Part shown: piece after piece, positions 9,691-11,250 of the stretch
Numbering within the stretch: the first letter of the stretch is position 1
Layout of the letters: every line of letters starts with the position of its first letter
Source: Bacilli bacterium
GTDB lineage: Bacteria > Bacillota_I > Bacilli_A > RF39 > UBA660
Length of the DNA stretch: 64,000 bases
Direction: 5' to 3'
NCBI GenBank assembly: GCA_017548925.1
Contig: JAFYYX010000001.1
Span: forward strand, 828,658 to 892,657
The notes under the pieces: generated by a model
Databases searched by the model: none
What the model was told of the DNA's origin: nothing
The model's input: only the letters and a program-made list of their open reading frames with translations
Made by a program: the position numbers and the translations under genes

Positions 9691-11250
9691 TTAAGGACAA
9701 TTTGGTAATTTATTTTTATCAACTTTATAAGTGTAAGTTCCATCACCATTACTAGTTCTAAATAAATCAATTAAACTACATTTATTAGATCCACCAAACT
9801 CAATTGAATCTGTTACAATTGCATTTAAATTTGATGCATCACCATAGCTAAATCCAGTTAATGTTGAAGGTAATATTAATTTACCAATCTTAGATTGAGA
9901 CCATCCTGTAAAATCAAATGTCTCTAGTTCAAGCCCTGATAAATCAACAACATCAGCTTTTATCTTAGAAAATGCACTATACTGAATGTTTTTTAACTTA
10001 GGATTATTATAAAGTTTTATAGTATTAAACTCATATCCTTGGAAACCAGAATTATTAATTCTTTCTAAATTAGGGTTATTATAAATAAGTAATTCATCAA
10101 TATAACATCCATTTTGATCATAACAACTTAAAGCCCCATTAGTTATTTCAAGAAAACTTTGATTATTAAAAATATGAAGAGATTTAAACATTGATGAACC
10201 AAGTGCAGTAGATGTAATTCTAACTAAATTTGGATTATTAGATATTGTTACTTTTGCATCACCTTGAGTATCATAAAAAGCCATTGATGTAATCTCAGTT
10301 AATGAATCAAAATTACTAATGTTAATTTCTTTTAATTGAGAATGTTCAAAATCAGAACCTATTGATGTAACACTTGGTAAACCTTCAAGAGTTATGTATT
10401 CTAGATTATTTTTAGCATATAAAATACCACTAGGAATACTTTCTAATTTAGGACAATTAGTTAAATAAAAAACATTAGTATTAGGATTTGATACAAAACT
10501 ATGAATAGTTTCTAAATTAGGTAAATTAGATAATATAGCTTTTTTAAAATCAGGGTTATCACTTAAAAAACCGGTAGGTATATCAGTTAAATTTTTAACG
10601 CCCATTACATATAAAGACGTAAAATTCTTTGGTTGATTGTCATAAAAATCATCAGTTATACCATTAACATGCTCACCATTAATCTTATTAGGTATAATCA
10701 TAATAGTTCCACATGTTGATGTATCAAAATTATCAATTTTATGATCAGCATCAAGTGTATAACAACTTGATGTTAAATTATAGTTAACATCCTCACCAGT
10801 AAGTGATTTAACAGATATTTCGCTATTAGTTACATTAGGTAAAAAAGCCATACAGTCTTCTTCTGTTTCAATATTTTCATCTATTTTTGCTTCTTTATCG
10901 GTAAAAGATTTAACAGCGCACATACCCAAATTATTATTCCATATTTGAATACGAACTTTATCGTTTTCATCTTTGATCATAAAACCAGAATAATCAGTTT
11001 TAGGTAAAATTTCTATACCACTATTAGGAAAGGAGTATATAACATACTGCTCTAATTTATCTTTTACTAAAGTATCATAGTTAGTGGATTTAACAAATTG
11101 TTCAACATCAGTAATAAAAGCCTGTTTTTTTGACTTTTCAAGGTGCTTTAAAACAATATTTGTTGATATTATTGCAACAATACCTAAAACTACAACAACT
11201 GCAAGTATTTCAACCATAGTAAATCCTTTATTACTTTTCATGTCAACCAA
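9691..11250 (-). CDS. Modular type IV pilin-like protein fused to a BspA-type leucine-rich-repeat domain.
   Basis: The N-terminus is MVDMKSNKGFTMVEILAVVVVLGIVAIIS, a class III signal. The C-terminal half has 22-24 aa repeats with an LxxLxxI/V pattern (NLPNLETI, CPKLESIPSG, LPSVTSIG, LKEINISNFDSLTEI, NPNLVRITS, NPNLERIN, NPKLKNIQ). Confidence 0.75.
   Translation of the reverse strand: MVDMKSNKGFTMVEILAVVVVLGIVAIISTNIVLKHLEKSKKQAFITDVEQFVKSTNYDTLVKDKLEQYVIYSFPNSGIEILPKTDYSGFMIKDENDKVRIQIWNNNLGMCAVKSFTDKEAKIDENIETEEDCMAFLPNVTNSEISVKSLTGEDVNYNLTSSCYTLDADHKIDNFDTSTCGTIMIIPNKINGEHVNGITDDFYDNQPKNFTSLYVMGVKNLTDIPTGFLSDNPDFKKAILSNLPNLETIHSFVSNPNTNVFYLTNCPKLESIPSGILYAKNNLEYITLEGLPSVTSIGSDFEHSQLKEINISNFDSLTEITSMAFYDTQGDAKVTISNNPNLVRITSTALGSSMFKSLHIFNNQSFLEITNGALSCYDQNGCYIDELLIYNNPNLERINNSGFQGYEFNTIKLYNNPKLKNIQYSAFSKIKADVVDLSGLELETFDFTGWSQSKIGKLILPSTLTGFSYGDASNLNAIVTDSIEFGGSNKCSLIDLFRTSNGDGTYTYKVDKNKLPNCP

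Follow-up and report, generated by a model that had tools for sequence, protein, structure and literature searches.

A candidate modular type IV pilin with a BspA-type leucine-rich-repeat domain in uncultured gut Bacilli

The gene and its neighbourhood

A single long open reading frame spans positions 9691..11250 on the minus strand of the window, by which we mean the whole 64 kb stretch of DNA that was analysed. Translated from a TTG at 11250 it yields the 519 residues given in an earlier, sequence-only reading of this DNA, three more than the form that begins at an ATG. The reading frame itself stands, while its likely start, as judged from sequence, is the ATG at 11241, since the NCBI call agrees and every ortholog begins at the equivalent methionine; the coding sequence then occupies 9691..11241 (minus strand) and encodes 516 residues plus stop, according to the ORF list and translation. 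The product is 100% identical to MBR5662870.1 (NCBI, 516 aa), whose public label is 'leucine-rich repeat protein' and nothing more. An origin of the gene by horizontal transfer was considered and rejected, as its GC content (0.24-0.26) is the same as that of neighbouring genes and synteny is kept in orthologs down to 47% identity. Within the 96-nt intergenic spacer upstream, a consensus scan picked out a putative promoter-like site (TTGAAT-17-TATAAT with a TG extension; 11269..11297, minus strand), in AT-rich DNA where the total count of such sites is not above chance. An AT-rich hairpin with a T-run, read from the sequence at ~11320-11344, is likewise putative and belongs to the upstream gene.

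The gene lies among housekeeping genes (engB, der, spoVIF, spoIVA), with no pil locus there. A conserved pair encoding a thioredoxin and a thioredoxin-like membrane protein adjoins it, and 45 nt downstream on the same strand is a gene for a membrane-anchored lytic transglycosylase with an SLT domain (8485..9645, minus strand; PF01464, 5e-8). An ortholog of the latter with 42% identity holds the same position beside the most divergent ortholog of the LRR (leucine-rich repeat) gene (L003); the transglycosylase gene is absent from the contexts of two other orthologs (L001 and L002). It is possible that this enzyme is an accessory that opens peptidoglycan for the pilin, a link drawn solely from gene position.

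Four large prepilins with glycine-rich domains of the ALK/LTK type are encoded within 15 kb, in conserved synteny. One, at 6538..7776 (minus strand), combines a class III signal and a pilin module with the glycine-rich domain (N_methyl, 1.6e-6; ALK_LTK_GRD, 3.7e-31) and is syntenic in all contexts compared. A second, at 1806..3071 (minus strand; N_methyl, with ALK_LTK_GRD at 3e-16), shares 37% identity with the α1 region of the LRR protein (BLASTP, 2e-12 over residues 2-66). The 5' part of a third occupies 1..1727 (minus strand), starts with MKSKKGFTLTE and continues past the window start; the full gene (L005:11345-13918) encodes 857 residues and includes Flg_new repeats along with the ALK_LTK_GRD and N_methyl signatures. 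Together with the LRR protein these make up five large prepilins of 412-857 residues, all with Glu5.

Prepilin signal and pilin module

The sequence-only reading had called a textbook class III signal at the N-terminus, and profile searches bear this out: Pfam N_methyl (PF07963) reaches 25.8 bits (cutoff 21.2) and TIGR02532 (GFxxxE) 24 bits (cutoff 16.3). The signal reads MKSNKG/FTMVE, with prepilin-peptidase cleavage predicted after Gly6, so that the leader MKSNKG corresponds to 11224..11241 (minus strand). For comparison we used 16 orthologs with 47-72% identity from ruminant-gut metagenome-assembled genomes (MAGs). In their alignment, which had been named beforehand as the place to look for Glu5 and Gly-1, K-2, F+1, T+2 and E+5 never vary, and Gly-1 is replaced in a single ortholog, by Ala, and kept in the other 15. 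The mature protein would begin with the hydrophobic α1N segment FTMVEILAVVVVLGIVAIIST (11161..11223, minus strand), which contains Phe1, Glu5 and Gly14 in mature numbering; Gly14 is found in 12 of the 16 orthologs and is Ser in the others. The hydrophobic stretch covers residues 7-27 of the precursor. In AlphaFold2 (AF2) models of both the full-length and the truncated protein, residues 9-52 form a 44-residue helix.

The helix is followed by a globular part (residues 53-135; 10837..11085, minus strand), modelled as 4-5 β-strands and then a short helix. This β-sheet module is conserved among the orthologs (identity 0.59), with invariant Cys108 and Cys130, W101 and others. In the prediction, then, the pilin module of ~135 residues is a long helix plus a small β-sheet. 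When a profile of the N-terminal module was compared with proteins of solved structure, the matches were exclusively to type IV pilins and pseudopilins, namely the α1 of the PilA-N geopilin, MshA, GspG and PilE1. With a few small proteins of pilin-like type from other Bacilli MAGs, alignments made with hhalign pass beyond α1 and reach 100-127 columns. A search that used the corresponding module of the neighbouring glycine-rich prepilin as its query retrieved six short proteins. A Foldseek search of the PDB with a moderately confident model (pLDDT 72.9) of a 142-residue module gave no significant match to a solved pilin (best E 0.5).

Could the N-terminus instead be the ordinary Sec signal-anchor of a secreted LRR protein that resembles N_methyl by chance? 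The N_methyl model has just 27 positions, the score of 25.8 bits is modest, and the NCBI label makes no mention of a pilin. We nevertheless find this very improbable. The K-G-F-T-x-x-E pattern recurs in the 16 orthologs, with the one departure at Gly-1 given above, and is seen again in all four paralogs of the 15 kb neighbourhood and in some 19 LRR fusions that are more distant; the profile matches in the PDB are pilins exclusively; the long helix leads into a β-sheet; and no AXA-type signal-peptidase site could be read from the sequence after a short h-region.

Another alternative accepts the prepilin signal and places the protein, as a minor pseudopilin, in a competence (Com) pilus or in a system resembling type II secretion, where the LRR domain would, for example, dock a partner or capture a substrate and would not serve adhesion. 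There are sub-threshold NCBIfam matches of α1 to GspG, ComGD and GspH, and a neighbouring glycine-rich prepilin weakly matches the α1 of ComGC and ComGE. Another Bacilli MAG has its sole T2SSE ATPase beside holA, a com-like vicinity in Bacillus. A solenoid-bearing competence pilin, ComZ, provides a precedent (cited in PMC8179133). However, the Com and Gsp matches span α1 only, at 16-34 bits against cutoffs of 49-89, and membership of these pseudopilin families was rejected for the LRR protein (best GspG at 25 bits with a cutoff of 88.9, and ComGD at 23.8 bits with a cutoff of 70). The LRR domain bears on this alternative as well, as described below.

The leucine-rich-repeat domain

The remainder of the protein is a linker and an LRR domain. 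The linker and the N-terminal cap (residues 136-208; 10618..10836, minus strand) contain invariant Cys160 and Cys177 and an LRR_5-type first unit, TIMIIPNKINGEHVNGITDDFY, whose motif can be read from the sequence as IIPNKINGEHVNGITDDFY; AF2 confidence over this part is high (pLDDT 89-95). Eleven rungs of 22-29 residues follow (residues 209-475; 9817..10617, minus strand), delimited by strand spacing in the AF2 model and by internal profile matches. The last rung and the C-terminal cap (residues 476-516; 9694..9816, minus strand), defined from the ortholog alignment, carry invariant Cys488 and Cys515. The six invariant cysteines thus fall into three local pairs (108-130, 160-177 and 488-515), and probably form three disulfides that stabilise an extracellular protein, the first within the pilin module and the other two within the two LRR caps.

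Over residues ~180-500 we count 12-13 rungs of 22-29 residues, with a mean of about 24.7. The at least eight repeats called from sequence were therefore real, although more numerous and less uniform than the 22-24 residues first given. The preceding non-repetitive region had been put at about 300 residues; it is much shorter, as the pilin module takes ~135 residues and the LRR N-cap ~70, and repeats begin at ~180, which leaves ~135-180 residues. The full-length AF2 model (pLDDT 86.9, pTM 0.79) contains the helix, the 4-5-stranded sheet and a 13-rung solenoid, joined by a confident junction. Across the repeats pLDDT is 84-98, with 13 regularly spaced strands.

Assigning the repeats to a family required the orthologs. 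The window protein itself has no match to LRR_5 (PF13306) at E<=0.01, and against other LRR models it gives sub-threshold matches only, to LRR_At5g56370, LRR_EndoS and Recep_L. LRR_5 is matched by 12 of the 16 orthologs (best 7.9e-19), and a precomputed LRR_5 domain is carried by 13 of 17 family members. The search with LRR profiles that had been proposed as a check therefore came out below threshold for the protein and above it for most of its orthologs, and BspA-type LRR_5 membership of the window protein rests on orthology because its own score is below the LRR_5 threshold.

Since the length of the LRR unit varies, hydrophobicity autocorrelation has no sharp peak at 22-25 residues. Evidence for repeats was taken instead from profile-profile comparison of sub-blocks and from strand spacing in the model. 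Non-overlapping C-terminal blocks match each other with P between 1e-9 and 1e-15, and the control comparison of the pilin module with the LRR gives P 0.26; the periodicity on which the sequence-only reading had staked its LRR call is present. Foldseek with the AF2 model returned LRR proteins exclusively, including the BspA-type 4fd0, 4cp6 and 4h09, in keeping with the proposed fold; the E-values (1e-3 to 0.2) are weak because the query was the whole two-module model. At the DNA level, Tandem Repeats Finder detected no relevant tandem repeats in the gene; the repeats are ancient and present at the protein level only. Taken together, these results support a protein in which a class III signal and pilin module are fused to a BspA-type (LRR_5) domain.

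When the family profile was compared with solved sequences, it matched the LRRs of the LH, FSH and TSH receptors (LHCGR, FSHR and TSHR) over ~150-190 residues at 1.3e-15 to 4.5e-7; these best matches of known structure are protein-binding LRRs. Conservation is unevenly spread along the protein. The rungs are its most variable part, with a mean pairwise identity of 0.47 (0.36-0.56) among the 16 orthologs, and α1N and the C-cap are the most conserved (0.72-0.73), with the last 16 residues at 0.80. Conserved ends and variable rungs fit a sequence composed of a conserved assembly part and a diversifying binding surface. Both observations tell against the Com or type II secretion-like alternative, as BspA-type and hormone-receptor-type LRRs are protein-binding modules, and variability of the rungs between close species is more easily reconciled with external ligands that change than with a constant partner inside a machine. 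We regard that alternative as quite unlikely.

Filament assembly and relation to known systems

Is the protein assembled into a filament? Neither the 64 kb window nor the adjoining 8 kb past its start encodes a prepilin peptidase (Peptidase_A24), a T4P/T2SSE ATPase, a T2SSF platform protein or a small major pilin, so processing and polymerisation of the LRR pilin are assumed. One gene product (L037) flagged by a motif scan as a T4P ATPase turned out to be an ABC transporter. Related Bacilli and Erysipelotrichia MAGs do encode T2SSE ATPases, as well as small pilins in clusters; in those of uncultured Bacilli the ATPase genes are scattered and lie outside pil operons.

An alternative is that the LRR domain belongs to a cell-surface protein for which the class III signal serves export, cleavage and membrane anchoring only, with no filament or at most a very short pseudopilus stub; the five large prepilins of the locus would then be a set of membrane-tethered surface proteins. 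None of the five genes has pilus machinery or a major pilin nearby in three syntenic contexts, and modular prepilins of related MAGs (L017, L023, L032, L071, L078 and L084) are orphans too. All five proteins are bulky and have Glu5, the residue that a tip initiator would be expected to lack. To our knowledge, class III signals without filaments occur in archaeal sugar-binding proteins and in many N_methyl proteins of Planctomycetes and Verrucomicrobia, and we know of no pilus-subunit role for the large N_methyl expansions of DUF1559 proteins in the latter two groups. Against this stand the invariant Glu5 and the Gly14-type residues of α1N, which are features of assembly and not of a simple anchor. 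A glutamate within a membrane helix is, from the sequence, hard to explain otherwise than by filament assembly. A mere anchor would also have no need of the conserved pilin-type β-sheet module, with its cysteine pair and W101, and thick peptidoglycan would bury a protein tethered by a 135-residue module. Anchoring alone is, in our judgement, rather unlikely.

On balance we lean towards a modular minor type IV pilin that presents the LRR domain as a predicted tip adhesin. The class III signal would insert the prepilin into the membrane, where MKSNKG would be removed, and Phe1 methylated, by a prepilin peptidase whose gene would lie in another part of the genome, and the α1 helix with Glu5 would dock the small pilin module into a type IV filament. 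Because the rigidly attached solenoid of ~380 residues appears too bulky for the filament body, we propose that the subunit most likely sits in a complex at the tip, which the neighbouring glycine-rich-domain modular pilins may join. The variable concave face of the LRR would then bind a protein ligand on host tissue, other microbes or ruminant-gut particles. By analogy, the LRR domain is probably a protein-binding adhesin displayed on a pilus; we infer the pilin's position at the tip from its bulk and from the precedent of Streptococcus sanguinis PilB (vWA) and PilC (lectin), adhesins modelled at the pilus tip in which Glu5 is retained (PMC8179133, PMC9934059).

Like the LRR pilin, PilB and PilC (PMC8179133, PMC9934059) come from a monoderm, have a short leader with Gly at its end, and retain Glu5. 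In each, a bulky, independently recognisable domain is attached to the C-terminus of a small pilin module, the size is ~50 kDa and the expected role is that of an adhesin in a tip complex. Unlike the vWA or lectin modules of S. sanguinis, the module here is a BspA-type LRR solenoid, its gene is outside any pil locus, and its predicted junction with the pilin module is a rigid one that includes a disulfide-bridged cap, instead of a short flexible loop. GspK, CofB and ComZ are large minor pilins in which the pilin module likewise bears an additional domain, a β-solenoid in ComZ; capping of the filament has been proposed or shown for them (PMC8179133). In GspK and ComZ, however, the extra domain is inserted in the pilin β-sheet and is not general-purpose, whereas the LRR is C-terminal, and GspK has no Glu5, which is invariant in the LRR pilin family.

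Among LRR proteins, the BspA of Tannerella forsythia, LrrA of Treponema denticola, PcpA of Streptococcus pneumoniae (4cp6) and the LRR_5 proteins of Bacteroides and Eubacterium (4fd0, 4fdw, 4h09) share the LRR_5/TpLRR repeat of ~23-25 residues, the curved solenoid and the location at the cell surface. Adhesion or co-aggregation is documented for some proteins of this type. They differ in being anchored by a Sec signal with lipid, choline-binding, CTD or wall anchors and not by a pilin module, and their sequence identity to the LRR pilin is just 11-13%. The ectodomains of LHCGR, FSHR and TSHR, the best profile matches and top Foldseek matches, have similarly irregular units of ~24 residues, and their concave sheet is where a protein ligand binds. 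The biology of these eukaryotic receptors is unrelated, and the likeness goes no further than the LRR subtype.

The sequence-only reading described pilin-LRR fusions as rarely reported, which overstates the case. In Dataset S1 of Raynaud et al., 2021 (PMC8179133), N_methyl plus BspA-LRR (IPR012902-IPR026906) is the seventh commonest modular-pilin architecture, with 18 proteins and six more with two LRR_5 matches. In that study a modular pilin has an N-terminal IPR012902 signature and a domain that is not specific to type IV pili, as the window protein does, and the LRR_5 extra domain was counted among those with 'no clear function'. The catalogued proteins have the same two-signature architecture and, unlike the family described here, are catalogue entries only; our search found no experimental study of any of them. 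A two-signature screen would mostly miss the 16-ortholog family because several members, including the window protein, are below the LRR_5 threshold. We found independent examples in other gut Bacillota MAGs (L023 and L071), and further pilin-LRR fusions in about 19 more distant clusters with G-1, F+1, T+2 and E+5 conserved. The matches listed in a search of genome contigs with the pilin-module alignment were at α1 level and came from MAGs other than those of the orthologs; they included both LRR and non-LRR modular prepilins. The LRR pilin family is therefore a further case of an already catalogued architecture, which makes the advance incremental and leaves current models uncontradicted.

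A broader reading, which we consider speculative and unlikely, is that the class III pathway serves as a general display system for large binding modules in this small-genome, 25%-GC, spore-forming lineage of gut Bacilli. The repertoire may then comprise one LRR and four ALK/LTK-type glycine-rich modules, one of these also with Listeria-Bacteroides repeats, and the genes may have become fixed in the engB/der/spoVIF/spoIVA neighbourhood, detached from pil operons, with a dedicated lytic transglycosylase and a thioredoxin relay beside the LRR subunit. Possible forms of such display are the co-assembly of bulky modular pilins as a multi-adhesin tip complex, or exposure that involves no long pilus of the conventional kind.

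The many functions gained by simple type IV filaments are currently explained by modular pilins, and those studied so far are the vWA and lectin modules of one streptococcus only. If the LRR-bearing pilin assembles as we propose, the most widespread protein-recognition repeat of bacteria and eukaryotes would also be displayed on type IV filaments. The family offers a compact example of 516 residues that models well, with a conserved assembly part set against a variable binding face. For uncultured Bacilli with reduced genomes in the rumen and gut, the LRR pilin points to candidate colonisation factors.

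Gene, class III signal and module layout

A single long ORF spans 9691..11250 on the minus strand. Read mechanically, it opens at a TTG at 11250 and encodes 519 aa, while an ATG at 11241, three codons downstream, gives the 516-aa LRR prepilin (9691..11241, minus strand). This ATG is common to all orthologs in A1, the protein alignment of the LRR prepilin with its 16 orthologs, and is the NCBI start for the identical MBR5662870.1 (named 'MAG: leucine-rich repeat protein [Bacilli bacterium]'). The GC content of 0.24-0.26 is that of the neighbouring genes. The 96-nt spacer 5' of the gene holds a TTGAAT-17-TATAAT site with a TG extension, a candidate promoter only, since matches of this kind occur in this DNA no less often than expected by chance. 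Only 16 full-length orthologs were found in a database of 5.8 billion clusters, with identities to the LRR prepilin of 44-71% by BLASTP and 47-72% in A1.

The leader peptide MKSNKG (residues 1-6) is followed by FTMVEILAVVVVLGIVAIIST. Both Pfam N_methyl (25.8 bits, curated cutoff 21.2) and NCBIfam TIGR02532 (24 bits, curated cutoff 16.3) match above threshold. Lys-2, Phe+1, Thr+2 and Glu+5 do not vary among the 16 orthologs; Gly-1 occurs in 15 of them, with Ala in the remaining one, and Gly14 in mature numbering in 12. Beside such conservation, it is very improbable that a Sec-exported LRR protein merely matches N_methyl by chance. Searching all PDB sequences with a profile of residues 1-142 returned type IV pilins and pseudopilins only (PilA-N geopilin, MshA, GspG, PilA, PilE1), aligned in every case over alpha1. 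Signal matches, motif conservation and these pilin-only profile matches together bear out the prepilin leader with Gly-1 and Glu5 that the sequence-only reading had described. An alternative, a Com or T2SS-like pseudopilus subunit with a role internal to that machine, we regard as quite improbable. By the NCBIfam models, the LRR prepilin is not a member of the ComG/Gsp equivalog families.

Behind the leader lie the alpha1 helix (residues 9-52), a predicted beta-sheet of four to five strands plus a short helix (residues 53-135, with invariant Cys108 and Cys130), and a linker with the LRR N-cap (residues 136-208), which carries invariant Cys160 and Cys177 and a typical LRR_5 opening unit, 'IIPNKINGEHVNGITDDFY'. 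Eleven further LRR rungs (residues 209-475) lead to the last rung and C-cap (residues 476-516, with invariant Cys488 and Cys515). The pilin-LRR architecture is as first claimed, but the module boundaries had been misjudged: the non-repetitive part, put at about 300 aa, is ~135-180 residues long. Across orthologs, alpha1N and the C-cap are the most conserved regions (mean pairwise identity 0.72 and 0.73, with 0.80 over the last 16 residues), and LRR rungs 2-8 the least (0.36-0.49).

The LRR fold

The window protein itself did not reach the Pfam LRR_5 threshold and gave only sub-threshold matches to other LRR-clan models, whereas 12 of the 16 orthologs match LRR_5 (best 7.9e-19), so that the HMM evidence for the repeats comes from the family. 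In profile-profile comparison, P lies between 1e-9 and 1e-15 for non-overlapping C-terminal blocks matched with one another, against 0.26 when the pilin module was compared with the LRR as a control. A confident AlphaFold2 model (mean pLDDT 86.9, pTM 0.79), built from the 16-sequence alignment, contains a solenoid whose 13 short strands begin at residues 180, 209, 234, 257, 282, 305, 329, 351, 380, 404, 428, 451 and 476. These starts define LRR units of 22-29 residues (mean ~24.7), a wider range than the 22-24 aa proposed from sequence, with 12-13 units where at least eight had been counted. LRR periodicity, whose absence was to count against the sequence-only reading, is present in the orthologs' LRR_5 matches, the internal profile matches and the 13-strand model.

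Foldseek searches of the PDB with this model returned LRR proteins only, among them the ectodomains of TSH, FSH and LGR receptors and, from bacteria, the LRR_5 structures 4fd0, 4cp6 (PcpA) and 4h09, with E-values that are weak (from 1e-3) because the query was the whole two-module model. At the sequence level, the family profile matches the LRRs of the LH, FSH and TSH receptors (1.3e-15 to 4.5e-7) as well as 4fd0 and 4fdw. The best matches of A1 among solved sequences are vertebrate LH/FSH/TSH receptor LRR ectodomains, ahead of bacterial BspA-like structures.

Gene neighbourhood and pilus machinery

Gene order is kept in three contexts (the window, the 71%-identical ortholog and the 44%-identical ortholog), with an SLT gene as the sole exception: recA, rny, DUF87 ATPase, class V aminotransferase, thioredoxin, 409-aa membrane protein, LRR prepilin, SLT transglycosylase, engB, glycine-rich-domain prepilin, der, two unknowns, spoVIF, three more glycine-rich-domain prepilins and spoIVA. 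The SLT gene (8485..9645, minus strand) encodes a membrane-anchored lytic transglycosylase 45 nt downstream of the LRR prepilin. In L003, the context that diverges most, a 42%-identical ortholog occupies the equivalent position, and no such gene accompanies the 71%-identical ortholog (L001/L002). The transglycosylase may serve as an accessory that opens peptidoglycan, or be unrelated. Directly upstream of the LRR prepilin in every context is a pair of genes (11347..12576 and 12583..12837, minus strand) for a small thioredoxin and the 409-aa protein. The latter combines a signal peptide with a thioredoxin-like CPHC motif of DsbA type and a membrane domain resembling CcdA/DsbD. Given six invariant cysteines in the LRR prepilin, it is conceivable that this pair acts as its thiol-disulfide relay. 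A 586-aa HerA/DUF87-type ATPase (14014..15774, minus strand; HerA_antiphage 8e-48, far below cutoff) separates rny from the aminotransferase in every context.

The glycine-rich-domain prepilins are of ALK/LTK type. Three lie on the minus strand of the window (6538..7776, 1806..3071 and, partial, 1..1727) and the fourth at L005:14005-16272, in a locus extending beyond the window start. They measure 412, 421, 857 and 755 aa, match PF12810 at up to 5e-64, and are interspersed among engB, der, spoVIF and spoIVA, the order being kept across species; one additionally has Listeria-Bacteroides (Flg_new) repeats. All five prepilins, the LRR prepilin included, carry a KGFT-x-x-E motif and keep Glu5.

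No Peptidase_A24, T2SSE, T2SSF or small pilin genes were found in the 64-kb window and 8 kb beyond its start, and none of the best 120 of more than 8000 matches to an Erysipelotrichia T2SSE ATPase seed came from the window's ~1.03 Mb contig. Six short proteins matched the pilin module of a neighbouring prepilin. In related uncultured Bacilli and Erysipelotrichia MAGs, T2SSE ATPases and clusters of pilins of 160-200 aa are present, scattered through several loci (L087 of GCA_028694645.1, 8891..12529; L037, 7554..11878; L039, 1654..6206). In one Bacilli MAG a T2SSE ATPase stands alone, next to holA and a DUF6273 protein; in others, three to four such pilins precede nfo-pbp-efp, and in one case only is the ATPase adjacent to them. 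Scattered type IV filament genes are thus normal in these genomes, and the absence of machinery from the window says little. We judge an anchor-only surface protein, never polymerised, to be rather unlikely.

Two other systems in the window are unrelated to type IV pili. A conjugative T4SS-like block (41583..55034, minus strand) encodes a coupling protein (T4SS-DNA_transf 1e-53), a VirB4/TraG-like ATPase, a protein with sub-threshold similarity to NlpC/P60 and SpoIID, and several membrane or secreted proteins that match nothing in Pfam. At 57484..63989 (minus strand), a 1261-aa EssC-like FtsK/SpoIIIE ATPase and, after it, several small helical proteins without Pfam match resemble a type VII secretion locus. 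RNA genes in the window include a class B RNase P RNA (287 bits) and two tRNA clusters of 7 and 5 genes (19751..20094 and 26326..26991, both minus strand, and 30981..31564).

A modular prepilin and its relatives

The pilin-LRR reading is well supported by the sequence and the predicted structure, with signal motif, module layout, LRR fold, conservation pattern and synteny all shown here, and we lean towards a minor type IV pilin of the modular kind. Cleavage after Gly6 and N-methylation would fall to a prepilin peptidase from elsewhere in the genome, and alpha1 with Glu5 would dock into a filament. The position would be tip-proximal, as a rigidly attached ~380-residue solenoid cannot fit the filament body, and the variable concave LRR face may bind a protein ligand. 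By analogy, the putative tip-adhesin role is a reasonable inference: like the LRR prepilin, PilB and PilC of S. sanguinis are modular and retain Glu5, and they bind host ligands and have been modelled in a tip complex (PMC8179133, PMC9934059).

Our family profile, run exhaustively with HMMER against 1.84 billion representatives (E<=0.001), gave 19,051 matches, the majority of them giant LRR surface proteins that carry ordinary signal peptides. Of the best 150, 19 clusters that do not belong to the family open with a class III signal (444-1666 aa, plus fragments). The whole pilin module is shared by several of these as well, and N_methyl and LRR_5 were both above threshold in 7 of the 10 tested. 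Two more independent pilin-LRR fusions occur in other gut Bacillota MAGs (L023, 835 aa, LRR_5 4e-134; L071, 448 aa). Gut Bacilli MAGs also encode orphan prepilins of 450-1030 aa (L017, L032, L036, L054, L078, L084) in which the C-terminal part matches DUF6273 or DUF7743, or no Pfam family; it therefore seems common in this group for modular prepilins to carry modules that are not recognised.

Raynaud et al. 2021 define a modular pilin as an N-terminal IPR012902 plus a domain not specific to type IV pili (PMC8179133), which the LRR prepilin fits. Their Dataset S1 lists IPR012902 with IPR026906, the BspA-type LRR, in 18 proteins plus 6 with two LRR_5 hits, and the glycine-rich fusion IPR012902-PF12810 in 2 proteins plus 1; the paper places IPR026906 among modules with 'no clear function' (PMC8179133). 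Our literature search found no paper characterising a pilin-LRR fusion. The LRR prepilin belongs to a catalogued but unstudied kind of modular pilin, and a further, unlikely reading is that its lineage displays a whole repertoire of bulky modules via the class III pathway.
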